Source: an uncultured Helicobacteraceae bacterium | GTDB taxonomy: Bacteria > Campylobacterota > Campylobacteria > Campylobacterales > SZUA-545 | Direction: 5' to 3' | Assembly: GCA_963542625.1 (NCBI GenBank) | Contig: CAUTXO010000001.1 | Location: forward strand, 3,068-67,067 | Length of the DNA: 64,000 nt | Shown here: positions 13,816 through 64,000 of the stretch, one piece after another | Layout of the letters: each line of letters begins with the position of its first letter | Numbering within the stretch: position 1 is the first letter of the stretch | The notes under the pieces: model-generated | Databases searched by the model: none | Seen by the model: the letters and a program-made list of their open reading frames with translations, nothing else | Told to the model about the DNA's origin: nothing | Position numbers and translations under genes: made by a program

Positions 13816-15675
13816 ATGTTTAAATCGATGTCTGTAAAACTAAGGCTAGTAATTTTATCATCAACGCTGAGTTTGTTTCTTTTGATCGTCTCTTTTTTGT
13901 CGTTCAACGCACTTGGCACAATCGCCAAAAGCGCTAATGAAATGTATCAGAAAAACACAAGAAGTATCGTGCTTGTCTCAAGATTAAATATGGTTTATTT
14001 GCGCCTTAGGCTAGAGATCTTACGCACAAACGGCGGTAATGCAGATTACGCAAGATTTAATTCAATTTATAATACTTTCGACGAAGAATTCAAAAATTTT
14101 AACAGAGAATATCCGCAAACATATTTTGACGAGCAAGACAAAATCGACCACGAAAAATTAAAAAGTCTTATGGATATGTATATGGTAGCGGTGCAAGAAA
14201 TTATGGAAGAAATTAAAAATAACGCCGCGCTAGATCCGGTGGTGCTAAAAAGACTCGCAGAATACGGCACAAAATCAAGAGAAGCCATAAGCAATATGCT
14301 AACGCTCAATGAGAACGCATCAAAACAGGCGATAGAATTCAACAACAACAAGGCAAGCCAAATCAACATTTTGCTTGTTACGGTCACGATCTTAGCGACG
14401 GTTCTAGCGTTTGTGCTGTCCGTTTTAATCATAAAAAGCATCATAAATCCGCTTGAAAAAATCCAAAACGGCTTGCTTGAGTTCTTTAAATTCATCACGG
14501 GAGAGAGCAAAACGTCATCGCAAATCAATTACGACGGCAGGGACGAATTCGCCGTGATGGCAAAGGCGGTTAATCAAAACATCGAAGAAATCAGAGGCGG
14601 ACTTGCAAAAGATAGGGAAATGATTGCAGAAACCGCGAAGGTAATGTCCATTTGCGTTGAGGGGGATCTAGACCAAACAATTAGCTCCACGCCAAACAAC
14701 CCAGAGCTTACCGAGCTTAGAAAAATGATAAACCACTTTTTAGATGAGTTTAAATCCGCGATAAAGGGCACGGTGCACGTCCTAAACACCTACGCAAGCG
14801 GCGATTTTACAATCCGCATTCCAGAGCAAGCCGCCATAAAAGACAAAAAAGGCTTGATAGACGGCATCAATTTTCTAGGGCGCGAAGTCTCAAAAATGCT
14901 AACCCTTTCGCTCAGGCAGGGCGAAACTTTGGCGGACAAATCCGCTGTGCTTAACGGATCTGTTAATTCCATAAGCCGTGGCGCAAACGAGCAAGCCGCA
15001 AGCCTTGAAGAAATTGCCGCAAGCATAGAAGAAATCAGCGCGTCGATGGAGCATATGAATACCAAAGCCGATCAAGTCATAGCGCAAAGCGAAGACATAA
15101 AAAGCATTCTGTTAATTATCAAAGATATCGCGGATCAAACGAATTTGCTTGCTCTTAACGCCGCGATTGAAGCCGCGCGCGCGGGCGAGCACGGGCGTGG
15201 CTTTGCCGTCGTTGCCGATGAAGTGCGAAAGCTAGCCGAGCGAACGGCAAAAAGCCTTTCAGAGATTGAAACCAACGCAAATATTCTAGTGCAAAGCATT
15301 AATGATATGAGCGGATCTATCAAAGAGCAAAGCGAGGGCGTTTCTCAAATAAGCGACGCAATCAGCCAGCTTGACGGCGTAACGCAAGGCAACGCCGCCG
15401 CCGCGGATAGCACCGGCAAGGTTGCGATAGAAGTTAGCGAGATGTCAAAAGTGGCGGTAGAAAGCGCGAGATCCAAGAAGTTTGAAATAATAGAAGAAGG
15501 CGGCGCGGACAGAGCGCAAGATCTAGGCGCAGGCGTAGGCGCGGGCACGCACACTTCAAGCGGCGCTAGCGCTCAAGAGCCAGCACGCGAGCAAACGCCG
15601 CCAGCAAACGCGCAAACAGAACAAACGCACGACGAACCACAAACTAGAACAAGAAAGATCCTAAAGCCGCTCTAG
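13816..15675 (+). CDS. Methyl-accepting chemotaxis protein (helical-bundle sensor) with low-complexity C-terminal tail
   Basis: Two TM helices, a HAMP-like region and the signalling hairpin [38 protein letters not shown]. The last 65 aa or so are Q/T/A/P/G-rich. Confidence 0.9.
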
Positions 15676-16027: not shown

Positions 16028-18802
16028 ATGAAGGCATTTGCTTTGCTGTTTGCCGGCTTCATCGCCGCAACGGCAGGAGTAACATTTGTAGAGGGGGGAC
16101 CACATAAGCCGCGCACACAGCTAGAAACGCAAGATCTGCAACAAAACTTCAGCACTCATTCACAAGCACAAAATCCAAGACAAACGTATAGCCAGACGGC
16201 TTTGGCGCAAAATAAACCACAAGCTCTCACGCAAGATCTAAGCCACCAAGCAAAGGAACCAGGAGCGCAAGATCTTAGCAAAAACAAGGCGCAAGGGCTA
16301 AGGGCACAAACTCAAACGGCAAGTGGCGGCTTGGATCTAGGACGCGGGATTATCACAGCAGCAGCGGATCTAGCAAGCGCAAACTCTCGCGCAAGTTCTA
16401 GCACCGGATCTAACAGCAGCGACGGCACCAACGGCACAAAATCTAGCGCAAAAGCTGGCGTTGGATACGACAACGGCACTAGCACAGATCCAAACACAAA
16501 CGCGGGCGGCAACACCGGCACAGGATCTAACGCTGGCGTGGGCGCAAACGCGGACGTAAAAACAAACGCAAACACAAAGCTAGATCTCATAGCAAGATCT
16601 AACGCCATAGCCCTTGCTGATACAAATGCGCTTGCAAGCGCAAACAGCAGCGCAAGATCTAGCACAGGATCTAACGGCAGCACCAGTGCAAACAAAGGCA
16701 CAGAAACCACCACCAGCGCAAAACAAACCGCAAGAAGGCGCGTGCAAGATCTAGGCACAATCGCCGTGAGCGCCACAGTTAGCCGCGTCAATTCCCTTGG
16801 CTACGCCGGCTCGCTTGGCGTCTTGCAATCGCGCGACCTAGACACGCAGCAAAACATCATAGACGCGCTCAAAAATATGCCGGGCATTGACGGCGGAATG
16901 GACGTCGGCCGCCAAGCGGGCAAGCAGTTTCAAATACGCGGCTTTGGCTACCAAAGCGAGGAGCGCGTCATCATCAAACAAGACGGCGTGGCGCGTTCGC
17001 CGGGGCTTTACTCCAATATGATCTCTAGCTTCCGCTCGGACACGGACATCTTAAAACGCGTTGAAGTCGTCAAGGGCACAAGCTCCATTTTGCACGGATC
17101 TGGCGCAATCGGCGGGGTCATCACAATGCAAACAAAAGACGCTTCTGACTACCTGCGCGCGGGGCGGCAAGCCGGCGCGATGCTTGGCGCGCGATACGAA
17201 ACAAACAATATGAAAAGCGTTCGCGGCGCACTTTACGCAGCGCCTGATAATACGCCGTTTGAGATCCTAGCTTACGGCAAAGAAGCGCGCCACAAAACGA
17301 TCCGCTACGCAGAAGGCGGCTCGCATTACGCGCAAAAAAGCGACGATTACGACGACCTTGCAAACGATGAAAAAATCACAGACTTTTTCCTAAAAGTTGG
17401 CGCAAAGTTCGGCGATCACAGCGCAAAAATAAGCCTTTTTGACTTCACGGAGCGCATTAAAACAACCTGGCAAAGCCTTTGGCAATTCTCAAAAACAGAC
17501 GAAGATCTCTTCGTATCCGGCAAAATCACGCAGCGCGATTACACGGCGCAATACGCCTACCACCCCGTATCAAACCTCGTGCAGCTTGAATTAAAAGCCT
17601 ACCACTCGCAGGCAAAATACGCGCGCGGATACGACACCACAGGCAGCAGCGGGCGCACCGTCGCAAACTACACAAACAAAGAGCACCGCTGGGGGCTAGA
17701 AGCAAAAAACACGGCAAGGCTAGAGAGCGAACTTTTATTGCAAGAGATAGTAGCGGGCGCGGATTACGCAAACAGGGCAGAATACGCGGAGTTTATCATT
17801 AACGGCGCAGCAAAAAACCAGCCAAGCCATCCAAACGAATACCACAACTACGGCGCCTACGCGCAAGACACGCTCACAGCCGGCGCCTTTGACTTAACAC
17901 TTGGCGCGCGCTACGACGGCTTTTTGCGGCGCATTAAAAAACCCGGCACAAAGGATTTTAGCGGCAGCCGTTTTAGCCCACGCGTGGCGGCGGCATATGC
18001 GCTAGGCGAGCTCACGTTTTTGGCTGGCTACAGCGAGAGTTTCCGCGCGCCAACCCCGCACGAAACCTCATCAAGCGGCCCCATCAACCGCGCGTATTAT
18101 TACCTACCAAACCCAAATTTGCGCCCAGAAATCGGCAAGGAGCTAGAAGCTGGGGCTAGCTACGCAAACACTTGGCAAAACGGCACGCTAAGCGCAAAAG
18201 CAATGTTTTTTGACGGAAAAATCAAGGATATGATAGACATTCGCCCGCGTAAAGATCTTGGCACGCCGCCGGCTGATGGGAGCCTAAACCCCGCGCAATA
18301 CGGGCAATACATCAACGTAGATAGCGCAAGAAGGCGCGGCGCGGAGATAACAGCAAGCCACCGCACGGACAAAACGCGCGTGGCGGCAAGCTTTGAAACC
18401 TTGCGCCTTTACGATGAAAAAACGAACAAAAACATCAACAATCACGCGGACAAAATCATTCTTAGCGCCGGTTTTTCGCCCGTTGCCGCACTGGATCTTA
18501 ATATGCGGCTAAGCCACTGGCTAAAGCCAAACTCCAAGCCCGCTTCTTACGAGGGGCGCGTGCGGGAAGGCGGGCGGATTGTCACAAAAACTTTCTACTA
18601 CGCAGATAAAGCGTTTAGTGTCGTTGATCTTTGGGCGCGGCTAGCGCTTGAGCGGGTCTTTACGGGGTTTGACGCGCTAACGCTTAAAGTCGGCGTGAAT
18701 AATGTTTTTGACAAGCAATACATCAACGCCAACCGCACAAAAGACACGCCCATCGTAGGGCTTGGGCGCAATATTTGGAGCGATTTGGAGCTACGCTTTT
18801 AG
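16028..18802 (+). CDS. TonB-dependent outer-membrane receptor with a low-complexity N-terminal extension of about 220 aa
   Basis: Signal peptide, a TonB-box-like DLGTIAVSATVSRV at about aa 243, plug motifs (FQIRGFG, VEVVKGTSSILHGSGAIGGVI) and a C-terminal ...WSDLELRF. Confidence 0.85.
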   Translation: MKAFALLFAGFIAATAGVTFVEGGPHKPRTQLETQDLQQNFSTHSQAQNPRQTYSQTALAQNKPQALTQDLSHQAKEPGAQDLSKNKAQGLRAQTQTASGGLDLGRGIITAAADLASANSRASSSTGSNSSDGTNGTKSSAKAGVGYDNGTSTDPNTNAGGNTGTGSNAGVGANADVKTNANTKLDLIARSNAIALADTNALASANSSARSSTGSNGSTSANKGTETTTSAKQTARRRVQDLGTIAVSATVSRVNSLGYAGSLGVLQSRDLDTQQNIIDALKNMPGIDGGMDVGRQAGKQFQIRGFGYQSEERVIIKQDGVARSPGLYSNMISSFRSDTDILKRVEVVKGTSSILHGSGAIGGVITMQTKDASDYLRAGRQAGAMLGARYETNNMKSVRGALYAAPDNTPFEILAYGKEARHKTIRYAEGGSHYAQKSDDYDDLANDEKITDFFLKVGAKFGDHSAKISLFDFTERIKTTWQSLWQFSKTDEDLFVSGKITQRDYTAQYAYHPVSNLVQLELKAYHSQAKYARGYDTTGSSGRTVANYTNKEHRWGLEAKNTARLESELLLQEIVAGADYANRAEYAEFIINGAAKNQPSHPNEYHNYGAYAQDTLTAGAFDLTLGARYDGFLRRIKKPGTKDFSGSRFSPRVAAAYALGELTFLAGYSESFRAPTPHETSSSGPINRAYYYLPNPNLRPEIGKELEAGASYANTWQNGTLSAKAMFFDGKIKDMIDIRPRKDLGTPPADGSLNPAQYGQYINVDSARRRGAEITASHRTDKTRVAASFETLRLYDEKTNKNINNHADKIILSAGFSPVAALDLNMRLSHWLKPNSKPASYEGRVREGGRIVTKTFYYADKAFSVVDLWARLALERVFTGFDALTLKVGVNNVFDKQYINANRTKDTPIVGLGRNIWSDLELRF

Positions 18803-19972: not shown

Positions 19973-20446
19973 TTAGCTTGGGTTGGCGGGCAAATCCGCG
20001 CCGGCGCTAGTGCTAGCGTCTAAGATCTTGGCTAAATCAATGACTGGAATTAGCTCATCACCTAGCAAAAAACAGCTTTTTGCAAAGTCTAGGCTGCGCC
20101 CCTGCACCGTAACGCTGCCGCTACTAAGCTCCCCCGCGCTCACTTCGTGCGGCAAAAGAATTTCATCGGCTAAAACGCAACAGCGCATTTTTTCTGCCTT
20201 GTAAGCCGTCTCCATCACAATTAGCCCCGTTTTTTTGCCAGGATCTGCCGGCAGCCCGCCAAGCAAAAACGCAAGATCCACCACCGCCAAAACATTGCCC
20301 CTGACGTTTGCAAGCCCTAAAATTTCCTTAGAAAAATTAGGGATTTTTTGAATGGAAAACTCTAGCGCAATCTCCGTAACCGCGCCAAAATCCACCGCAA
20401 ATTTGCGCCCGCTAAGCTTAAAAATCAAAAAAAGTTCGTTCATCAT
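19973..20446 (-). CDS. cheW: Chemotaxis coupling protein CheW
   Basis: CheW-like domain (FKLSGRKFAVDFGAVTEI...GLANVRGNVLAVVDLA). ATGA overlap with the cheA stop. Confidence 0.9.
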   Translation of the reverse strand: MMNELFLIFKLSGRKFAVDFGAVTEIALEFSIQKIPNFSKEILGLANVRGNVLAVVDLAFLLGGLPADPGKKTGLIVMETAYKAEKMRCCVLADEILLPHEVSAGELSSGSVTVQGRSLDFAKSCFLLGDELIPVIDLAKILDASTSAGADLPANPS

Positions 20447-22725
20447 TTGTTTTGCGCGATGAGCTTTGGAAGGTCTAAGATTAGCGCAATTTCCGTCCCC
20501 CCAAGCATCGCCACGCTGTCTATGACCCCTCTTTCATTAAAGTATTTGCCAAGCGGTTTTATCACCATTTGCGCTTCACCTAAAAGCTCGTCGGTGGCGA
20601 TTGCAAAGACGTTTTCTTTGTGCCTGACGACCACCGCGTTTCTGCGCGTGGCTTGGCTTTTCAAGCCAAAAAAGCTCTCAAGATCTATCACTTTTAGCTC
20701 ATTGCCAGGCGTGGCATTTGCGCCGCTTGCGCCGTTTGCCGCACCCGCGCTAAGATCTGCGCCAGAGCAAATCTGCACGCCCGCTAAGATCTCATCGCTA
20801 ATTGCAACGCCTGCTTGGATCTTTGCGCCGCCTAAGATCTTACCGCTAGCGCCACCGCCACCGCCGCTAGCCCCCGCGCCACCTGTGAGCGGGATCCAAA
20901 CGCTAGATATTAGCCCGTCCGCGCCGCTAAGATCTTGCGCGCTGCTAAGCCCCGTGCCCTGGCGGCTAAGATCTTGCCTACCCGCCGCGCCCAAGCCGCC
21001 CAAACTCCACCGGCTAGGATCCGCCGCAAAACTTCCCAGATCTTCAAGCGCCACGCACTCGCTAATGCTCTCAAGCCCTATGGCAAAAAGCACGCCGCCT
21101 TGCCTAAAGAAAAAGCCCTGCGTGATGGCAAGCGACGGCGGCAAAAAGATGTCAAACCTTGTGCCCGCGCCCTTTTTTGTTTGAATGCTAATGCTGCCGC
21201 GTAGGTCGTCGATGTTTTTTTTCACCACGTCAAGCCCCACGCCGCGCCCTGAAATATTACTAACCGTGCGCGCGGTGCTAAGGCCTGGCAAAAACATCAG
21301 GTTCAAAAGCTCGCTTTGGCTTAGCTTAGCACCCGGCAAAATCAGCCCACGCGCGGCGCTTGCTTGGCGGATCCGCTCTAAATCTATGCCCGCGCCGTCG
21401 TCTTCTACGCGAATATGCACGTAGCCGTTTTCGTATTCGGCGCTAAGTAGCAAGCGCGCGGTCTTGTTTTTGCCAAGCTGCTCCCTAACCTGCGGCGGCT
21501 CTATGGCGTGGTCAAGAGAGTTTCTAATTAAGTGCATAAGCGGGTCTTTTAAATGCCCGGCGATGGTTTTGTCAATCTGCGTTTTTGTGCCGGCTAGCTC
21601 CAGAAAAACGGACTTGCCAAGCGCGCTTGAGAGCTCATAAACGCTGCGTTTAAAGCGCTCGAAAATCTCGCCGATTGGTATCATACGCGTTTGCAAAGAA
21701 AGCTCGTGCAACTCCTTAAAATGCATTGATAGCTTGAAGATCTTCTCCTTTAGCTCGCTAGGAGCGCTCGCGCTTAGGCTGTTTTGCACGGAGGCGTTTA
21801 GGATTGCCATTTCTTGCATTAGGCTGATGATTTTGTCGATTTTTTCAACTTCTATGCGCGCAAACTTCTTAAATTCTTGCGGCTCAGCTGGCTGCTCGCT
21901 TGCAAAAACGCCCTGCGCCGCAAGGGTTTTTAGTAAATGCGGCCTTGTTTTATAAAGCTCCCCAGCGGCTGCTTTGCTTATCCCGCACGCAAAAACATCG
22001 ACGCTAAAAAACTCGCCAAAGCGCGCCAAATAATCCTTTGCCTCTTGCACCTGCGCGGCTTGGATATTAAACTCAAAGCCAAGCAAAAGCGGGTCTTGGA
22101 AACTCTCAAGCGGGGCAAGATCTGTGGTGTCCGTAAAAAACTCGCCGAGCTTAAAATTTGCGTCAAGATCTTGCAAAAAGCCCGCTAAATCAAAGCCCGC
22201 TAGGCTTTTTTGCGCGCGCATAGATACGTGCAAGGTGTCCTTACAAGCCAGCGCGCCTGTGATAGATCTAGCGCCTGAATTAACCCACGCGTTAGATCCA
22301 GCGCCTGCGCTAAGATCTACGCCCCAGCCCGCATTTAGATCTTTGCCAGCGCTAGGATCCACGCCCGCGCCCGCTCCCGCGCCCAAAATACCAAAGGCGC
22401 CTTGCTGTGAAAGGCTTTGCGCGGTTTCATCGCTTTGGTCTAGCATTAGCGCTAGCTTGTCACTCTCTTGCAAAATGGCGTTTAGATCTGCTTGCGTTAG
22501 CGCCGCGCGCGATTTTAAATCGCCAATGCGCTGCTCGAGCTCGTGCGCGGCTGTGGCAAGATCTTTAAAGCCCACCATAAGCGCGTTGCCCTTTATCGTG
22601 TGAATGACGCGGAATATTAGGTCTAAAAGCTCTTGTTTTGGAAGACTGTTATCCAAAATGCTTTGCTCTATTTGCTCTAGGCCCTGCGCCGCTTCTTGCC
22701 TAAACTCCTGCCCTACGCTAAGCAA
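20443..22725 (-). CDS. cheA: Chemotaxis histidine kinase CheA (no C-terminal receiver domain; two low-complexity insertions)
   Basis: Hpt site IHTIKGNALMVGF, HATPase motifs (HLIRNSLDHAIE, DDGAGID, GRGVGLDVV) and a C-terminal CheW-like domain. TTG start. Confidence 0.9.
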   Translation of the reverse strand: MLSVGQEFRQEAAQGLEQIEQSILDNSLPKQELLDLIFRVIHTIKGNALMVGFKDLATAAHELEQRIGDLKSRAALTQADLNAILQESDKLALMLDQSDETAQSLSQQGAFGILGAGAGAGVDPSAGKDLNAGWGVDLSAGAGSNAWVNSGARSITGALACKDTLHVSMRAQKSLAGFDLAGFLQDLDANFKLGEFFTDTTDLAPLESFQDPLLLGFEFNIQAAQVQEAKDYLARFGEFFSVDVFACGISKAAAGELYKTRPHLLKTLAAQGVFASEQPAEPQEFKKFARIEVEKIDKIISLMQEMAILNASVQNSLSASAPSELKEKIFKLSMHFKELHELSLQTRMIPIGEIFERFKRSVYELSSALGKSVFLELAGTKTQIDKTIAGHLKDPLMHLIRNSLDHAIEPPQVREQLGKNKTARLLLSAEYENGYVHIRVEDDGAGIDLERIRQASAARGLILPGAKLSQSELLNLMFLPGLSTARTVSNISGRGVGLDVVKKNIDDLRGSISIQTKKGAGTRFDIFLPPSLAITQGFFFRQGGVLFAIGLESISECVALEDLGSFAADPSRWSLGGLGAAGRQDLSRQGTGLSSAQDLSGADGLISSVWIPLTGGAGASGGGGGASGKILGGAKIQAGVAISDEILAGVQICSGADLSAGAANGASGANATPGNELKVIDLESFFGLKSQATRRNAVVVRHKENVFAIATDELLGEAQMVIKPLGKYFNERGVIDSVAMLGGTEIALILDLPKLIAQNK

Positions 22726-23240
22726 ATGCCTATCCCAAGCCCTGAAAATACGCGCTTGATTTGCTCGCTAGCGCCTTCTATCACTAGGGTTTTTGACTGC
22801 TTTTGTAAAAATAAATGCAAAGAAATTAAGAATAAGATCTTGCTTGTTTGCTCACCTGGCGCCGTGATAGCGGGCGTTGCCGCCGGATCTGCGCTTGGAT
22901 CTAAGCTGGCGTTTGGATCTCTGGCGGTGCCAAGATCTAAGGTAGCGCTAGGATCTACGCCGGCGCTTAGATCTTCGCCAACACTTAGATCTGCGCTAGG
23001 ATCCGCACTCACGCTTAGATCTTCGCCAGCATTTGGATCCGCGCCTAGATCCGCACCGCTGCCTAAGATCCCCGCCGCGCCGCCAAAGATTTTTGAAACA
23101 TCAACTTTCACAGTCGCGGTGAGCTCAAAAGCCTGCGCGGCAATCTCACGCGCTAGACCCCCTAGCCCAGCTGCGCTTAGATCTAGCGGCAAATCAAGCC
23201 TTGTGTGGTCTTGCATAATGCTAATCATCGCCGCGCACAA
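22713..23240 (-). CDS. Hypothetical protein, possibly a STAS-like fold split by a D/L/S/A/G-rich insertion
   Basis: The ends resemble a STAS domain (VKVDVSKIFGGAAGI ... KTLVIEGASEQIKRVFSGLGI). The middle 80 aa or so are encoded by RAGATCY repeats. It overlaps the clpB stop and the cheA start. The assignment is weak. Confidence 0.35.
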   Translation of the reverse strand: MCAAMISIMQDHTRLDLPLDLSAAGLGGLAREIAAQAFELTATVKVDVSKIFGGAAGILGSGADLGADPNAGEDLSVSADPSADLSVGEDLSAGVDPSATLDLGTARDPNASLDPSADPAATPAITAPGEQTSKILFLISLHLFLQKQSKTLVIEGASEQIKRVFSGLGIGICLA

Positions 23241-25803
23241 CCCTTGTTTGCAAGCTGCCGCCTTGCTCGTAGAAAGAAATTTTATCCCCCGCGCCTAGCT
23301 CGTCTTTTAAAATAAGCTCTGCAAGGCTATCTTCTACAAGATTATCAATAGCGCGTTTTAGCGGCCGCGCGCCAAAGACTGGGTCAAAACCCGCGCTCGC
23401 AATAAAAGCAACGGCGCTATCATCTAAAGAAAGTTCGATTTTTTTTGCCTTGAGCTTTGCCGTTAGCTGCTTGCTTAAAAGGCGCACGATTTGCTCGCAT
23501 TCCCTTTGGCTAAGCGGGTTAAATACAATCACGTCGTCTAGGCGGTTGATGAATTCTGGCTTAAAATGGCGCTTTAGCTCATCTTGCACGGCTGCCTTTT
23601 GCGCGGCGGGCTCGCTAATGCTAGCAATCTGGCTCGATGCAATGTTAGACGTCAAAATGATAATGGTGTTTTTAAAATCCACCGTAACGCCCTTGTTGTC
23701 GGTTAAGCGCCCATCATCTAGCACCTGCAAAAGCAAATTAAAGACGTCTGGGTGCGCCTTTTCCACTTCGTCAAACAAAATAATGCTATATGGTTTTTTG
23801 CGAACCGCCATCGTTAGCTGCCCGCCTTCATCATAGCCCACATAGCCAGGCGGCGCGCCAACAAGACGCGAAACGGCGTGCTTTTCCATATATTCGCTCA
23901 TATCAAAACGCACCAGCGCCTTTTGCGTGTCAAACAAAAACTCAGCCAAGATCTTAGCCGTTTGCGTTTTCCCCACGCCCGTTGGCCCTAGAAATAAAAA
24001 GCTTCCAAGCGGGCGGTTTTCATCGTTTAGCCCCGCCTTGCTGCGCTTAATCGCCCGCGCTAGGGCTTGCACGGCGGCTTCTTGCCCCACCACGCCTTGC
24101 TTTAAGATCTCTTCCACTTTTAAAAACTTCTCGCGCTCGCTCGCTAGCATTTTGCTAACGGGAATGCCCGTCCATTTAGAAACCACATCAGCAACGCCCT
24201 CTTCATCGACGCTATTTTTCAAAAGCGTGCCTTCTTTCTCCATCGCCGCCCATTTATCCGCAAGCGTGGCTGCTTCTTGCTCTAGCTTTGGGATCTCGCC
24301 GTATTCTATCTGCGCGGCGGCGTTATAATCGGCTTCTCTTTTTGCCGCTTCTGCACGGCGTTTTGCCGCTTCTAGCGCCTGCTTTTTCTTGCCAATCTCA
24401 TCAAAAACGCTGCTTTCAAGGTCAAAACGCGCTTCTAAAACCGCCCTTTTCTCTTGCAAAGACGCAAGCTCTTTTTCCACTTGCAAAAGCCGCTCGGCGT
24501 CTTTGTTTTCTTTCTCCATCAAAAGCGCTTGCTGCTCCACGCTAAGGCGCGAAATATCGCGCAAGATCTTATCTAGCGCGGCTGGTCTTGACTCAAGCTG
24601 TAACTTAATCTGGCTCGCGGCTTCGTCAATTAAATCGATAGATTTATCAGGCAAAAACCTATCGCTAATGTAGCGCGCGGAGAGATTAACAGCCGCAACG
24701 AGCGCGCCGTCTGTGATGGAGATCTTGTGGAAGTTTTCAAGGCTTTCTTTAATTCCACGCATAATCGATAGCGCCTCATAAATGCTTGGCTCATTCACGG
24801 TAATTGGCTGGAAGCGCCTTTGCATAGCCGCGTCTGCTTCAAAATACTTTCTGTATTCTTTTTGCGTCGTCGCGCCAATCGTGCGTAGCTCCCCGCGCGC
24901 AAGGGCGGGCTTTAGCAAATTTGCCGCGTCCATACTGCCCTCAAGCGCGCCCGCGCCTATAATCGTGTGAATTTCATCGATGAATAAAATCACGTTAGAT
25001 CTTTTCTTGACTTCATCGATGACGGCCTTTAAGCGCTCCTCAAACTCGCCGCGGTATTTCGCCCCCGCAATTAGCAAGCCCATATCAAGCGTAAAAATCG
25101 TCTTATTTTGCAGGGTTTGCGGCACATCGCGTGCCACAATTCTTGCGGCAAGCCCTTCTACAATCGCCGTTTTTCCAACGCCCGCTTCGCCAATTAAAAT
25201 AGGATTATTCTTAGTTTTCCGCAATAAAATTTCAATCGCGCGCTTAATCTCATCGTCTCTGCCAATGACAGGGTCAAGCCCGCCCTGCCGAGCCTTTTTT
25301 GTAAGATCTACGCCGTATTTTTCAAGCGCTTGTAAGTTCTCATCGGCGCTAGCGCTATCGATTTTTTTATCGCCCCTAATCTCTTTTAGCGCGCGCGCTA
25401 GGGCGCTAGGATCTACGTAATCTTTTAGTAGCGGCGCAAGATCTTCAAGGTTTGCAAGCAGCCAAGTATCCGCAGAAATAAAGCTATCGCCTTGCTTGGT
25501 GGCAAGCCCTTGCGCCTTGCTTAGCCCATCTAGGCTTTGGCGCGAAAGGCGGATGCTATCCTTCGTAACGCCTTGCGAGACCACGCCTTGCGCTGCCTGG
25601 CTTTGCAAGAAAAGCTCCAGCGCCTTGCTGTCAATGCCAAGCTTATTAAGCGCCTGACGCAAAATGGAGTTTGTGGTGGTAACCTGCGCCCAGAGAATGT
25701 GGAGATCCACCACTTCTGGGTTTTTGTTTAAGAGCGCTAGGCTCACGGCGGAATTTAGCGCGTTTGCCATTTGCTCGGTGAGTTTTTCAAAAATATCGGG
25801 CAT
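23221..25803 (-). CDS. clpB: ATP-dependent chaperone ClpB
   Basis: 860 aa. Two AAA+ modules ([15 protein letters not shown] and [15 protein letters not shown]) and a long coiled-coil M domain. Confidence 0.95.
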
Positions 25804-26493: not shown

Positions 26494-26524
26494 GATCTAA
26501 CGCGCCAAACGTCAAGATCCTGCG

Positions 26525-26754
26525 CCAAAGATCCACGCGCTAAAATCCAAAATCCGTGCAACGCCAGCGTTAAGATCCAAGACTTAGATCTTAGATCCAA
26601 GCCATAAGATCTAGCGCACCAAAGATCCACGCGCTAAAATCCAAAATCCGTGCAACGCCAGCGTTAAGATCCGCCGCTTAAATCTTAGATCTACACCCCA
26701 AGATCTAGCACGCCAAAGATCCGCACTTAAAACCAAAACCTAGCGCTAAGATCC
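26525..26754. repeat. Tandem repeat with 94-bp period, 2 perfect plus 1 degenerate copy
   Basis: The 54-nt core ccaaagatccacgcgctaaaatccaaaatccgtgcaacgccagcgttaagatcc is identical at 26525-26578 and 26619-26672. A degenerate, shorter third copy lies at 26713-26754. Confidence 0.9.
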
Positions 26755-28140: not shown

Positions 28141-30461
28141 GCTAGAGCCTTTACGCGCGCCCTTAGGCAATCAAGCTCTATAAGCTCTGCGCGTGCAAGC
28201 TCGGCAAAAAGCGGCTCGCCGCAACCAATCGCCGCGGGCAAGCCAAGCTCGGCGCAACGCACCGCCATATGCGAATTTGCTCCGCCATAGCAAGTGATTA
28301 GCCCCGCGATGCCCTTGCCAAACAAAAAGTCATAGCCCGGGTCGGCGTTTTTTATGCAAACGATTTTGCCCGCTAGATCTTGCTCGTAAGGCTCGCCGCG
28401 GCTTGCCGTAACGCTTGCTAGCCCGATGAAATTTGCCTTGCCGCCGCCAATAAAAAACTCGTAAATATCGCTCTGCTGCGTGATTAAAGACGGCAGCTGC
28501 AAGGCTTTGGTGAATTCAAAGGCGTCTTTATTTTGCTTGATGTTTGTTAAAAATAAATTATCCAAATTGTCAAATTCTAGCGTGCTGTAAAGGTTTTTAA
28601 TAACGGCAAAGTCTAAAAACGCCAAGTCTTGCGCGCCGATGCCGCTTTTTGCGCCAAGATCCCCCAGCAAGGAGATTACTTGGCTTAGGTGGCGCGTGAA
28701 TAAAAATTTAGAATACTCGCGCGCTTCTATGGCGTCTTTTATGAATTTTACAAGCCCCGCCGCGCTTGTTTTTAAGCCGTTTTCTACGATCTGCGCGGAG
28801 ATTTTTTCTAGCTGAGCCTGACTAAACGCAAACTCTTTTGTGTCTTTAAACGCGCCCCCCCCCCCGCTGCTACGCGCGCCGAAATATCTATCGTAGTCCT
28901 CGTCGTATCGTGGCGATGTGATGTCGTAAGTGTTGGGGCGCAAATGCCCGTAAAGCTTTAGGAATTCGCCCTTTTCTAGGCGCGCAAAGTCTTTATTCAT
29001 CGTCTTAGAAACGGTGTTTATGCTAGCCAAAAACTCCGCGCGCTCTGGTTCGCTCATAATCCCCTCACTCACAAAAGAATTGAGAATTTGCGTGGCAATA
29101 AACGCCGCGCGCGCCAGCCCCGCAAAGGCTAGCGTGCCATAGCGCTTGCAATCTTCTGTGAGCCAATAAATCGTATCAATAAGCGGCAGCCCAGCATTCA
29201 TCACCGATGAAAATTTTTCATCTAGCAAGGCGATTTTCTCAAGGTCGCGCTGAAAATGCCCGCTCGGGGCTAAAATGCTATTGGTTAGATCCAAAAGCGC
29301 AAACTCAATGCGCTTGATTTCATTGGCGCTAAAGCCTTTGGATCTTAGCCTTTCTAAGCGCCCCGAAATGCCGAAAAAATAGCAAGAAAAGACAATCTCA
29401 AACTCGACCTTATCGTGCAAATGCGCGTTTTGCGCCAGCTCGTCCAGATAATATTCAACGAGTTTTTCGGCAATGTTTTCGTGCAAATTCTTTGGCAAAA
29501 AGGAGTTAAACGAAACGCGCACGTCAATGTATGGAATGCCAAAAAAGCTCACAAGCAGCGGAAACGAGCGCAAATTTCTGTAGCCATAATTGTCGCGCTG
29601 ATACGCCCAAATTTCATCCGTGATGAATTCTTTGTAAAGGCTAAGCGCTAGTTTTTTAGGCCTTAGCCCGATGATTTCAGCGGGGTTCCAATCAGGCATA
29701 ACGCCAAAAATGCTCCTTTTGCCAAGCAATTTTGGGTGGGGGCTGCTTAGTTTTTCGATTTTTTTAGAAAGCTTAGATAGCGCTAGATCTAGGTTCAGCG
29801 CGCTTTTGCCACTAGAATGCGTAAATGCAAGCGGCCTAGCTTGCAAGATAAACACCCGCTCATCGCAAACGGCAAACTCAATGTCAAGGGCGGGATTATC
29901 TAAAACGCTTTCAAGCTCGCGCGCGGCGTCTAAGATCCGCGCTAGATCTTTAGCGGCTGGCCTGTGATCTTTATAGCAAACAAAGGTCTTAAGATCTGCC
30001 TTGCCGCCTGCTGTAACGCTTGTTGTATCGCCGTTTTGTGAGTAATTGACGGTGTAATACGGCGCGCCAGAGGCGCTGAGTGTAAAAATCACGCCGCTAG
30101 CGCCAACGCCACTAAGCATTTCTTGCACAAAAACTTCATCTTGCGCGCAAGGGTTTTTATACGATGCAAAAACGCGCTCGATTGCCGCCTTAAGATCCGC
30201 CGCATTTGGCGCAACGTTTAAAACGCTCTCAAACGCCCCCGCGTTGCTAAAATGCTCTGCGTCTTCATTCACAGACGATGAGCGCACAATAAGCGGAGCG
30301 GAAAACTTTGCCAGCACCGCGCCCACAATGCCTGCCGCGTCTTTTTGAAAATCCGCGTAAGAAAACACGGCAAGCTCTAGCACGGCGGATTTTTTCAGGC
30401 GCCCTTGTAAAAATAAAAGAGTTTGTGCTTTGGAGCGGGTCATACTTTTTTTGCCATCCAC
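28137..30461 (-). CDS. PEP-utilising-enzyme family kinase (Cj1418-like; candidate L-glutamine kinase)
   Basis: 774 aa. An N-terminal PPDK_N/ATP-grasp-like region and a C-terminal phosphohistidine swivel domain (ITCYGGANSHMAVRCAELGLPAAIG). An alternative ATG at 30443 gives an ATGA overlap with the upstream stop. Confidence 0.8.
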   Translation of the reverse strand: MDGKKSMTRSKAQTLLFLQGRLKKSAVLELAVFSYADFQKDAAGIVGAVLAKFSAPLIVRSSSVNEDAEHFSNAGAFESVLNVAPNAADLKAAIERVFASYKNPCAQDEVFVQEMLSGVGASGVIFTLSASGAPYYTVNYSQNGDTTSVTAGGKADLKTFVCYKDHRPAAKDLARILDAARELESVLDNPALDIEFAVCDERVFILQARPLAFTHSSGKSALNLDLALSKLSKKIEKLSSPHPKLLGKRSIFGVMPDWNPAEIIGLRPKKLALSLYKEFITDEIWAYQRDNYGYRNLRSFPLLVSFFGIPYIDVRVSFNSFLPKNLHENIAEKLVEYYLDELAQNAHLHDKVEFEIVFSCYFFGISGRLERLRSKGFSANEIKRIEFALLDLTNSILAPSGHFQRDLEKIALLDEKFSSVMNAGLPLIDTIYWLTEDCKRYGTLAFAGLARAAFIATQILNSFVSEGIMSEPERAEFLASINTVSKTMNKDFARLEKGEFLKLYGHLRPNTYDITSPRYDEDYDRYFGARSSGGGGAFKDTKEFAFSQAQLEKISAQIVENGLKTSAAGLVKFIKDAIEAREYSKFLFTRHLSQVISLLGDLGAKSGIGAQDLAFLDFAVIKNLYSTLEFDNLDNLFLTNIKQNKDAFEFTKALQLPSLITQQSDIYEFFIGGGKANFIGLASVTASRGEPYEQDLAGKIVCIKNADPGYDFLFGKGIAGLITCYGGANSHMAVRCAELGLPAAIGCGEPLFAELARAELIELDCLRARVKALA
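28855..28865 (-). repeat. Poly-G(11) homopolymer inside the glutamine-kinase-like gene
   Basis: Run of 11 C on the + strand. It encodes GGGG in ...RSSGGGGAFKD and is in frame (ON) here. Confidence 0.95.
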
Positions 30462-31267
30462 ATTCTCGTTGTGTATTTGATGTCAAACTCAAGCGGCAAC
30501 GAATGCTCTAGTTTGTAGGCGATCTTGCCAAAAAGCGCTCTGCCTTCTTCGGTGCTAAGATCCCAGTATGGGTTTTTCACGCTCTGCCAGGCTTTGATGT
30601 AATTCTCCCTGCTTTGGCGGAAGTAAAAATCCTGCTCTATAAAGCAAATCTCATCAAAAAGCGCGCGCTGCGTTAGCAAAAATGGCTTTTGATCTTCGCG
30701 CCTAACGCCGCCTGAATAGTTTGGCAATAAGTCCTTGATGACTTCTTGCGCCGTTTCTTGGATTGGGTCGTCAAGATCCCTGTGATTCCACATACAAGCA
30801 AAGCAGCCGCGGGGCTTTAAGATCCTAGCCGTTTCTTTAAGCGCTAGCTCTCTATCTACCACGTTAAAGCTGCTGCCAAAGGTTACAAGATCAAAGCTAG
30901 CATCATCTAGCGTGGTTTCTGTTGCGCCCGCTTTATACCAGGTGGCGTCTTTGCCCTTTGTTCTTTCTATGCCGATTTCTCTCATTGCGTCGTTTGGCTC
31001 AACGGCGCTAACCTTCAAGCCCCGCTCTAGGAGCATAAGCGTTAGGTTTGCCGTGCCAGCGCCTAGATCTGCGGCAACGCCGCGCGGTTTTTCTTGTGCG
31101 CCGTTTTGCGCCCCGCCTTTGCCGCCAAACGCCCATTCGCAAAGCAAGTCTATTGCCTTTGGGCTGTAATTTGGGCGGTAGGTGTAAAACGCCGCGTGCT
31201 TAGTGTAGTTCCATTCTGTTTTGTAGAGCGTGGATTGCCCCCCCCCCCGCTGCTGTAAATTTTTCAT
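30440..31267 (-). CDS. Class I SAM-dependent methyltransferase (Cj1419/Cj1420-like)
   Basis: ADLGAGTANLTLML SAM motif I and FDLVTFGSSFNV motif. Poly-G tract at codons 7-10. Confidence 0.8.
   Translation of the reverse strand: MKNLQQRGGGQSTLYKTEWNYTKHAAFYTYRPNYSPKAIDLLCEWAFGGKGGAQNGAQEKPRGVAADLGAGTANLTLMLLERGLKVSAVEPNDAMREIGIERTKGKDATWYKAGATETTLDDASFDLVTFGSSFNVVDRELALKETARILKPRGCFACMWNHRDLDDPIQETAQEVIKDLLPNYSGGVRREDQKPFLLTQRALFDEICFIEQDFYFRQSRENYIKAWQSVKNPYWDLSTEEGRALFGKIAYKLEHSLPLEFDIKYTTRMWMAKKV
31238..31248 (-). repeat. Poly-G(11) homopolymer at codons 7-10 of the methyltransferase gene
   Basis: Run of 11 C on the + strand. It encodes MKNLQQRGGGQ and is in frame (ON). Confidence 0.95.
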
Positions 31268-32035: not shown

Positions 32036-32553
32036 TGTTCTCCTATCAATTTAAGAATTTGCGCCGCCTTTAGATCTAGGGCGTCTTGCCTTGTGTTGTC
32101 TATTTTTAAGTGGCAGTTTTTTGGCATATCAAAAGCTAAATCCATTCCAACGACGTTTTTTACGCCGCCATTTGCCCCGCTAGAAAAGCCGCTGTATAGC
32201 CCCTTTTGGTCGCGCCGTTTGAGCTCATCAAGGGAGCATTCTATAAAGATCTCGTAATACTCACGGACGTTTTTGCGGTTTTGCTCGAAGATCTCGCCAT
32301 AAAGAGACATCGTGGCGCAAACGACGTTAATATCCTGCCCGACCAAAAACGCGCACATAGCCGAGATCCGCCTAGCGTTTAAGAGCCTATCGGCGGGCGT
32401 GTGGCCTAGGTCGTTACCCAAAATGGCGCGGAAGGAGTCGCCGTCTAAAAATACTGTGTTTGGGTGGCGCTTTTTTAGGCGCGCAAAAACTTCTTTGCCG
32501 ATGGTGGTTTTGCCGCTACCGCTTAGCCCTGTGATCCAAATGAGTTTAGCCAT
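32032..32553 (-). CDS. APS-kinase-fold kinase (CysC/Cj1415-like; candidate cytidine diphosphoramidate 3'-kinase)
   Basis: MAKLIWITGLSGSGKTTIGKEV P-loop at the chosen ATG (32553), then FLDGD..R. The longer ORF to 32775 only adds repeat-encoded low-complexity sequence. Confidence 0.85.
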   Translation of the reverse strand: MAKLIWITGLSGSGKTTIGKEVFARLKKRHPNTVFLDGDSFRAILGNDLGHTPADRLLNARRISAMCAFLVGQDINVVCATMSLYGEIFEQNRKNVREYYEIFIECSLDELKRRDQKGLYSGFSSGANGGVKNVVGMDLAFDMPKNCHLKIDNTRQDALDLKAAQILKLIGEQ

Positions 32554-33922
32554 TTTTACCGCTTTGTGCTGGTGTGCGCGTTTGCGCTGGGGCGCTAGAT
32601 CTTGTGCTAGATCTTGCGGCGTTAGATCCAGCAAAGTTAGCACCAGCACCCATAAATCCTGCGGCGTCTTGCGCGGTTTGTTCGCCTTGCGCTTCTTGCG
32701 CGCCGTTAGATCCCGCGTTAGATCTCGCGCCACTGGATCTGCCATTTGCTGCGCGGATCTCATCACGCAAGGCAAGCACGCTTTCTACCACCGCGCATTT
32801 TTTGGCTTTGTAACGCAAAATAAACACGATGTTTTTCACAAAGCGCCTAAAAATAATCATCGGCTTTAACACCCCTAAGCGCTCTAAAAACCTAAGCACC
32901 GGCACGGTTAAAAGATGCGAATACTCGTAAGAATAATGAAACGAAAGCAAGTTTAATAAATTCACGCGTGAGTCGCCTAAAAGCTCTGCGCGGCAAATGG
33001 CGCTTTGGCTCATATCCGCCTTGGTGCAAAGCTTGTAGCCAGCGGCAAGATAAAGCGGCGCAAACATAGTCTCAAAGGCAAGCTGTTCTTCTTGGCTTAG
33101 GGCATCGTAAGTGATTTCTTTTTGCACTTCAAGCATCAGGTCTCCTTTAGCAGATTCATACTCCCAAGCCTTACCCATAAAGGTAGCCTTTAGCAAAGAT
33201 GGCGTAAATTCCAAGCCGACACGCTCGCAAAGATCTTTCATACAAACGTCTGGATCCATATGCAAATCTTCTAACCTAAGCGTGATGTAATTAGCAAGAT
33301 CCTTATGCAAAAAGTAATTTTTCATCCCGAATTTATACGCTTCTAATAAGCCCAAAACATAATTTACAGCCGTATTTTTTAACTTTTGCTTTAGCCTGAT
33401 GTGAGAAACGATGGCATTACTCATATCCCTAAACATATGCACGATAAAAACGTTTTTAAAGATAGCCTCTCGTTCTTTTAAGTAGAGCTCGCTCGGGTTT
33501 GAATGAATGTGCTCTACTATGTGCGTTACGTTTGTAAAATTAAAGCAAGCGGCAATAGCTGCGTAAAAACTTTCTATGTAATTTTTAACGGATCTTTGCC
33601 TAGCCGCTGCTGGAATAAAAACGTCCTTAAACTTCTGCGTATCAAAACTTAAGGTGTTTTTGCTGTAAAAAAAGTTATTTGCCGTGCTGAATTTATTCAC
33701 GTAAGGGTCTCTAAAAAAGCTCTCGCAAAGCATATCAAGCGACAAATCCATACGCGATGAAAAAAACTCATAACTATCAAAAAAACCGCTTGGCACAAAG
33801 GCAACGTTTTTATGCCCGTCTAGCATACTTTGAAGCAAGCTAGATCCGCTCCTGCTATGCACGTAAATATAGATGATTGTAAGATGTTCTAAACTTTTCA
33901 TTTTATCTGCAATAAATTCCAA
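32546..33922 (-). CDS. Sulfotransferase-fold protein (candidate phosphoramidate transferase) with low-complexity C-terminal tail
   Basis: IYVHSRSGSSLLQSMLDGH resembles the 5'-phosphosulfate-binding loop of bacterial sulfotransferases. An alternative ATG at 33901 gives an ATGA overlap. The last 70 aa or so are A/S/G/Q-rich. It overlaps the kinase start by 8 nt. Confidence 0.6.
   Translation of the reverse strand: MEFIADKMKSLEHLTIIYIYVHSRSGSSLLQSMLDGHKNVAFVPSGFFDSYEFFSSRMDLSLDMLCESFFRDPYVNKFSTANNFFYSKNTLSFDTQKFKDVFIPAAARQRSVKNYIESFYAAIAACFNFTNVTHIVEHIHSNPSELYLKEREAIFKNVFIVHMFRDMSNAIVSHIRLKQKLKNTAVNYVLGLLEAYKFGMKNYFLHKDLANYITLRLEDLHMDPDVCMKDLCERVGLEFTPSLLKATFMGKAWEYESAKGDLMLEVQKEITYDALSQEEQLAFETMFAPLYLAAGYKLCTKADMSQSAICRAELLGDSRVNLLNLLSFHYSYEYSHLLTVPVLRFLERLGVLKPMIIFRRFVKNIVFILRYKAKKCAVVESVLALRDEIRAANGRSSGARSNAGSNGAQEAQGEQTAQDAAGFMGAGANFAGSNAARSSTRSSAPAQTRTPAQSGKNG

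Positions 33923-61367: not shown

Positions 61368-64000
<2,633 letters not shown>

Follow-up and report, generated by a model that had tools for sequence, protein, structure and literature searches.

In-frame segments dense in a hyper-abundant GATC-core palindrome interrupt conserved proteins of an uncultured Helicobacteraceae bacterium

Low-complexity segments dense in the six-base palindrome RGATCY interrupt conserved proteins of an uncultured Helicobacteraceae bacterium, among them the histidine kinase CheA, LigA and RibF. We examined these segments in a 64,000-nt window (the whole stretch of DNA analysed here, C1:3068-67067) of a metagenome-assembled genome (G000; 1.75 Mb in 90 contigs, 46.7% GC, 96% completeness), which is the sole representative of its genus among the species genomes searched, and we followed the word through the rest of that genome. 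Our preferred explanation, to which we assign a probability of about 0.7, is that a hyper-abundant palindromic word has built the segments in place, as translated filler, and that neighbouring words drive slippage and duplication. In what follows, we demonstrate a genome-wide bias toward the word, lineage-specific inserts that are predicted to be disordered and are under relaxed constraint, in-frame insertions and deletions (indels) bounded by the word, and phase locking of the word to the reading frame.

A palindromic word in excess throughout the genome

The word RGATCY occurs mostly as AAGATCTT and has an extended form, GC-TAAGATCTTA-GC. In the window, RAGATCY is matched 392 times, compared to 14.7 expected from dinucleotide-preserving shuffles, and 93-94% of the GATC sites (n = 474) lie in an RGATCY context. 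Across the whole genome, there are 1,553 copies of AAGATCTT and only 12 of its reversed control, a ratio of 129-fold. Spacers carry 13.0 RGATCY per kb and coding DNA 5.4 (these and the genic counts that follow rest on gene calls made for this analysis, which comprise 1,499 open reading frames [ORFs] and 85% coding DNA).

The excess within genes is not a matter of protein sequence, as genes hold 7,976 sites, whereas synonymous shuffling leaves ~2,500 and codon-order shuffling ~1,330; ordinary coding DNA thus holds a 3.2-fold excess at fixed protein sequence. All three frames are enriched (RS/GS 8-fold, x-I-x 4-fold and x-D-L/P 2.4-fold). Outside the dense segments, GAT-CTN encodes 78% of D-L pairs (39% expected), while AGA-TCY for R-S and GGA-TCY for G-S are used at 10 and 11 times expectation, respectively. 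The dipeptides that the word encodes are also raised, with D-L at 1.48, K-I at 1.31 and E-I at 1.38 times expectation. In its excess in coding (all frames) and non-coding DNA beyond what codon usage provides, RGATCY behaves like a HIP-type word.

Within the family, AAGATCTT is raised ~10-fold over its reversed control in two other genera (genomes G003 and G008) and is low in the rest. The LigA insert described below is absent from both of these genomes, and the RibF insert is absent from G003, while G008 yields no RibF match that spans the insertion site. In several GC-richer genera of the family, GATC reaches 2-4 times expectation, for the most part within CGATCG (relatives' loci L002-L039).

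Word-dense segments in CheA, RibF and LigA

The initial annotation of the window listed seven low-complexity segments, and both their coordinates and the peptides quoted for them match our translations (Table 1). Its statement that their DNA is made of the same word as the intergenic blocks is borne out by six of the seven, which contain ~20-50 RGATCY per kb compared to 1.5-5 in core-domain controls; the seventh, the tail of an MCP, is a weak member. The further statement that the segments are open on both strands applies to five, each with exactly one stop-free antisense frame, and not to the other two, whereas in the control regions the sense frame alone is stop-free. It is because of these stop-free antisense frames in word-dense segments that antisense ORFs such as 20447-21184, 22124-22603 and 22696-23298 are called.

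The insertion in the P5 domain of CheA carries 26 RGATCY per kb (10 in 381 bp). The protein as a whole matches solved CheA structures at E 3e-69, and its best homologue among 30 relatives is 40% identical. In all 19 CheA homologues that we aligned, the insertion is a gap, and E. coli CheA (6s1k) has 20 residues at the site where this CheA has 115, while the P5 strands 'VAISDEILA' and 'LKVIDLESFF' are kept. The Pfam CheW match is only partial, being confined to residues 674-758 (profile positions 46-136), in agreement with the earlier proposal that the segment interrupts the CheW-like domain. In an AlphaFold model built from 13 sequences, pLDDT is ~22-25 for residues 561-677 and for residues 100-162, with folded flanks. 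The P5 insertion holds four copies of a 16-nt unit, GCSGCTAAGATCTTGC, which are not periodic (spacings of 48, 95 and 39). In the second CheA segment, the linker that follows the Hpt domain (35 RGATCY per kb, 5 in 141 bp), a 42-bp difference between strains sits exactly between two copies of a 17-bp word repeat, GCGCTARGATCYACGCC.

In RibF, the word array splits the flavokinase domain, the halves of which abut directly in 12 of 12 family genomes in which both were matched. The protein is 516 aa long here and 397 aa in a second strain, a difference of 119 residues that includes one block of 57 residues and one of 59, whereas nearly all other RibF homologues found are 283-301 aa, the exception being one multidomain protein of 506 aa. 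The insert contains a 145-nt duplication with copies 399 bp apart. At the start of another contig (G000:C4:128-346), we observe a partial second RibF C-terminus with 74% identity to residues 443-515, which could represent either a fragment of a paralogue or a strain variant within the assembly.

In LigA, which is 50-59% identical to its orthologues in relatives, the word-dense linker (35 RGATCY per kb, 3 in 86 bp) contains residues 571-585, which are missing in all 16 family orthologues.

Table 1. Positions of the word-dense segments and of the features within them. Coordinates are those of the window, except for RibF.
Feature	Position	Strand	Basis or description
CheA histidine kinase gene, 760 aa (Hpt, P2-like, dimerisation, HATPase, CheW-like P5)	20443-22725	-	Translation; Pfam Hpt, H-kinase_dim, HATPase_c, CheW
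CheA P5 word-dense insertion, residues ~561-677	20695-21045	-	~95 added residues across three loops
CheA P5 indel site, Gly-rich part	20847-20847	-	12-bp (4-aa) in-frame strain difference
CheA disordered word-dense linker 3' of Hpt domain, residues ~100-162	22240-22428	-	pLDDT <50
CheA Hpt-linker indel	22324-22371	-	42-bp (14-aa) in-frame strain difference flanked by two GCGCTARGATCYACGCC copies
RibF	G000:C3:26497-28047 (L049)		232-residue QDL/QDP word array in riboflavin-kinase domain
LigA residues 571-585, HhH-BRCT linker	61608-61652	-	Sole lineage-specific insertion of this LigA, versus 16 family orthologues
TonB-dependent receptor (TBDR) N-terminal low-complexity extension, signal peptide to plug domain	16097-16763	+	Translation; plug from residue 262
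MCP C-terminal low-complexity tail (weak member)	15472-15675	+	2 RGATCY, 9.8 per kb
Sulfotransferase-fold protein, word-dense C-terminal tail	32546-32767	-	Translation; 7 RGATCY, 31.5 per kb
ORF175 (ORF 22713-23240, 175 aa), middle	22850-23090	-	Degenerate in-frame 18-bp (6-aa) tandem array encoding ADLS, EDLS, DPSA

Length change and constraint between strains

A second assembly, GCA_052173315.1 (locus L021; here strain 2), is syntenic with the window over 22 kb at ~95% identity. Our strain comparison of the window covers these 22 kb, and a separate comparison of indels covers nine proteins. Indels make up 4.0% of the base pairs of the listed segments compared to 0.13% of other coding DNA, the substitution rate is 0.073 in segments versus 0.042 elsewhere, and the ratio of non-synonymous to synonymous substitution rates (dN/dS) is 0.63 versus 0.10 (0.30 when only the CheA segments are considered). 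All length changes in the listed segments are in frame or net in frame (42, 12, 9, 3 and net 21 bp). Of the 23 indels in the nine proteins, all in frame, 17 lie within the 14% of residues that are word-dense. A word block in a spacer downstream of the TMP-TENI gene (26503-26614) likewise differs between the strains by two indels of 36 bp and one of 6 bp, and spacer arrays therefore turn over as the coding arrays do.

From the sequence of the window, the initial annotation had surmised that the insertions could vary between strains, that the repeat is, or was, expanding or mobile, and that it is tolerated in linkers. Variation in length is found in CheA, the TBDR, the MCP, ORF175 and RibF, but not in the LigA linker, which has 2 substitutions, or in the sulfotransferase tail. 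Expansion is evident from the 18-bp array of ORF175, the 145-nt duplication in RibF and the repeat-bounded indel in CheA, and tolerance from the predicted disorder (pLDDT ~23) together with the difference in dN/dS. The filler peptides are probably close to neutral in function. Mobility did not stand, as described below.

The same comparison bears on whether the segments could be artefacts, either mis-assembled or left untranslated in pseudogenes or by alternative starts or stops. A metagenome assembly of 90 contigs invites this suspicion, as short repeats are hard to assemble. However, the same segments are present in the syntenic second assembly, every indel in a listed segment preserves the frame, singly or net, and the sequences next to the inserts, namely the P5 strands in CheA and the two kinase halves in RibF, are intact. 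An artefactual origin is scarcely credible on these grounds.

Word chains across the genome

To count such segments in the whole genome, we defined chains as runs of words with gaps of at most 45 bp and took the expectation from a Poisson model. Chains of at least 6 words number 58 in coding DNA (in 54 genes) compared to 2.9 expected, and those of at least 8 words number 40 compared to 0.13. A null of uniform placement within genes, under which 115 chains of at least 4 words were observed and 95 expected, was uninformative and was replaced by the Poisson model. In the peptides of the chains, D, Q, P, S and A are over-represented and hydrophobic residues under-represented. The hosts include CarB, where the chain lies in the linker joining its two halves, DnaX, FtsK (again in a linker), TrmB, FliK, a VWA-TPR protein and RibF. 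The initial annotation suggested that the insertions might tune linker length in signalling proteins, but any such effect would not be confined to that class, because housekeeping enzymes such as CarB, RibF, DnaX, FtsK and TrmB have the same inserts.

In coding chains, 75% of the distances from one word to the next are multiples of 3, compared to 35% in spacers, and 68% of the words are in the x-Asp-Leu/Pro phase. This phase locking in genes is a signature of filtering at the level of translation. It could also be taken as a sign of selection on the proteins themselves, in which acidic, flexible D-L-S or Q-D-P linkers would be favoured for spacing or solubility and the DNA word would be a by-product of coding, and the dN/dS of 0.30 in the CheA segments indicates that some constraint is left. 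Selection of this kind is nevertheless hard to reconcile with a word that is denser in non-coding spacers and enriched in three frames, with word-forming codon pairs at 2-11 times expectation for the same dipeptide, with an overall dN/dS of 0.63 accompanied by large length changes, and with hosts that range from CheA to CarB and RibF without a common function. We consider it improbable as the source of the segments.

Growth in place versus insertion of an element

In-frame word inserts in genes as unrelated as CheA, LigA, CarB, DnaX, FtsK, RibF, TrmB and FliK raise the question of whether a mobile repeat, small and discrete like a miniature inverted-repeat transposable element (MITE) or a Rickettsia palindromic element (RPE), transposes in frame into genes as well as spacers. 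Such an element would account for the vocabulary common to spacers and genes and for insertions that are lineage-specific and scattered over unrelated hosts. When the seven segments were searched against the 1.75-Mb genome with blastn-short, however, no shared unit beyond the words was found: the longest non-self match is 28 bp, and the many others are typically word matches of 16-20 bp. Word spacing is irregular, the P5 insert shows no significant RNA fold (z = -0.54 versus shuffles), and the inverted repeats within the segments are merely short, imperfect inverted word pairs. Transposition also cannot explain why ordinary coding DNA holds the word at a 3.2-fold excess when the protein sequence is kept fixed. 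We therefore reject a mobile element, and with it the mobility proposed earlier, as very improbable. Accumulation in place followed by slippage fits better than insertion of an element, since all coding DNA is enriched for the word even with the amino acids held constant.

Under growth in place, a DNA-level pressure would favour RGATCY throughout the genome. In constrained coding DNA, this pressure would appear merely as biased codon pairs and a modest excess of dipeptides, while in unconstrained coding DNA, such as surface loops, inter-domain linkers and tails, the word could reach a density like that of spacers or higher. Adjacent words would then provide microhomology for replication slippage and unequal exchange, leading to fast expansion and contraction. 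The variants expected to survive would be those that are in frame and in a tolerated phase, for the most part x-Asp-Leu or x-Asp-Pro flanked by Gln, Lys, Ser or Ala, and the outcome would be disordered peptides rich in QDLS, QDPS, KDLS, RS and KIL.

Several observations weigh against this account. The strain comparisons all come from short-read metagenome assemblies, which can collapse repeats, although this is partly offset by identical indels in a third assembly for three proteins. That the segments are translated we infer from conservation of the frame alone. Two of the listed segments, the LigA linker and the sulfotransferase tail, have the same length in both strains. With respect to the pressure itself, we found no Dam-type methyltransferase (PF02086) and no Vsr in a genome that is 96% complete, and a search for a BglII-type nuclease gave 0 matches but was uninformative, as its control also gave 0 in any genome. 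Finally, the word hexamers are just modestly better conserved than their surroundings, with 3.1% versus 4.8% substitutions (p = 0.02, within the 22 kb only).

Possible causes of the word pressure

The pressure toward RGATCY could come from a selected site for methylation, for protein binding or for DNA uptake, or from a bias in repair or conversion. The N6_N4_Mtase family is represented by two loci, one of which is strong (DPPY motif). The strong one (G000:C2:9158-10507, L040) lies directly downstream of a Rho-like gene, and its open frame begins with ~160-190 word-rich, low-complexity residues (23 RGATCY).

If the word is a functional site, the clusters within genes might be functional arrays for binding, methylation or uptake, hosted in tolerant parts of genes since spacers are scarce, with the peptides as a cost. 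This would be in keeping with the somewhat better conservation of the word hexamers, with the first rank of AAGATC in conservation among 104 frequent hexamers (GGATCT ranks 88), and with a word density in the segments above the spacer average; HIP1 is itself reported (PMC5861425) to be under selection in coding and non-coding DNA. Against such arrays, whole blocks are gained and lost between strains, and no cognate methyltransferase or binding protein was identified in the genome. We also tried and rejected a regular chromosomal spacing of the clusters, which are random along contigs (coefficient of variation of 1.0). We give functional arrays little weight.

A bolder version of our preferred explanation is unlikely, though conceivable: a drive toward a 6-8-bp palindrome at the level of DNA, or selection for it, may continuously generate new and rapidly expanding disordered segments in essential enzymes (232 residues in RibF, 95 in CheA P5), and the arrays may also be functional DNA sites forced on genes. 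If this were true, the lineage would be a natural experiment in how nucleotide-level forces make protein sequence. It could in either case serve as a test system for word function.

Relation to known systems

Like HIP1 (GCGATCGC) and the alternate HIPs of cyanobacteria, as described in the passages searched of Elhai 2015 (PMC4390886) and Xu, Lawrence & Durand 2018 (PMC5861425), RGATCY is a short palindrome with a GATC core that is hyper-abundant in coding DNA, in three frames, and in non-coding DNA, is not accounted for by codon usage or a peptide motif and may be somewhat conserved between genomes. Unlike HIP1 as presented there, the word here is RGATCY at ~6,500 per Mb, occurs outside cyanobacteria and is densest in spacers, and it forms long translated arrays (up to 232 residues) in proteins, of which we found no mention in those passages. 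Neither a Dam-type nor another cognate methyltransferase was identified in this genome.

According to Findlay & Redfield 2009 (PMC2817400), uptake sequences that accumulate within genes raise the frequency of the peptides they encode, show biases in reading frame, and prefer poorly conserved genes and positions with little functional constraint. RGATCY resembles them in these respects, with its dipeptide excess and its concentration in segments of dN/dS 0.63. Uptake sequences are, however, single sites at about one per kb or less, whereas here the word forms dense arrays that add residues and vary in length between strains. The likeness concerns sequence pattern, and this organism is not known to have an uptake specificity.

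With the RPEs, which are MITE-like in-frame insertions according to the review in PMC10969869 of the work of Ogata et al. 2000, the segments have in common that repeat DNA occupies fold-compatible sites in many conserved but otherwise unrelated genes and keeps their reading frame. RPEs, as described there, are discrete, ~150 bp long and have a family consensus, while the unit here is a word of at most ~16-20 bp with no hairpin signal that grows by local duplication. Coding micro- and minisatellites and low-complexity linkers shaped by slippage offer a further comparison, as they too have in-frame length polymorphism, a disordered location and some periodicity (18 bp in ORF175 and 399 bp in RibF), but most of our segments are aperiodic, and what they share is a palindromic word that recurs throughout the genome, not a repeat confined to one locus.

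What appears to be new is the extent: long, phase-locked and fast-evolving translated word arrays within domains of essential enzymes. A word bias at the nucleotide level can add tens to hundreds of disordered translated residues to conserved essential proteins, and the segments built from the word turn over between strains that are ~95% identical. The case links hyper-abundant palindromes (HIP1), the effects of uptake sequences on proteomes and selfish in-frame repeats (RPEs), which are usually handled apart. It also has consequences for annotation, which include spurious antisense ORFs, split Pfam matches (CheW and Flavokinase) and inflated protein lengths, and word-dense segments are likely to break short-read assemblies.

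Other segments and features of the window

The N-terminal extension of the TBDR (19.5 RGATCY per kb, 13 words) has a 9-bp in-frame strain indel at 16420 and a dN/dS of 0.62 compared to 0.15 in the rest of the gene. A search of the family at E <= 1e-20 gave no orthologue of this receptor. Just 3' of the signal peptide, at 16099, a 4-bp difference (GGGC) between the strains shifts the frame, owing to which the receptor of strain 2 is called 63 residues shorter (861 versus 924 aa); either a phase-variable tract or a mistake in the assembly could be the reason. The MCP tail has a 3-bp strain indel at 15508 and a dN/dS of 0.53 versus 0.07 in the rest of the gene, and the sulfotransferase tail overlaps the upstream open frame of an APS-kinase gene.

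ORF175, located between clpB and cheA, has the highest word density of the listed segments (50 RGATCY per kb, 12 words in its middle). Its array has periods of 18, 36 and 48 in Tandem Repeats Finder, with eight copies spaced 18 or 12 bp. The middle segment differs by a net 21 bp between the strains, while the N- and C-terminal flanks have 0 non-synonymous changes in 95 codons. The label 'STAS-like' given to this ORF in the initial annotation finds no Pfam match, even with the insert removed in silico.

Outside the word-dense segments, in-frame strain differences of 15 and 18 bp are found at 28868 and 31084-31110, in genes for a PEP-utilising enzyme and a methyltransferase of a glycan operon. 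Genome-wide, CATG is near-absent and GTAC rare, with 14 and 109 sites, respectively, in the whole 1.75 Mb. GGCC shows a 5-fold depletion and GCGC a 4.8-fold excess, and the profile as a whole looks like strong restriction-site avoidance.

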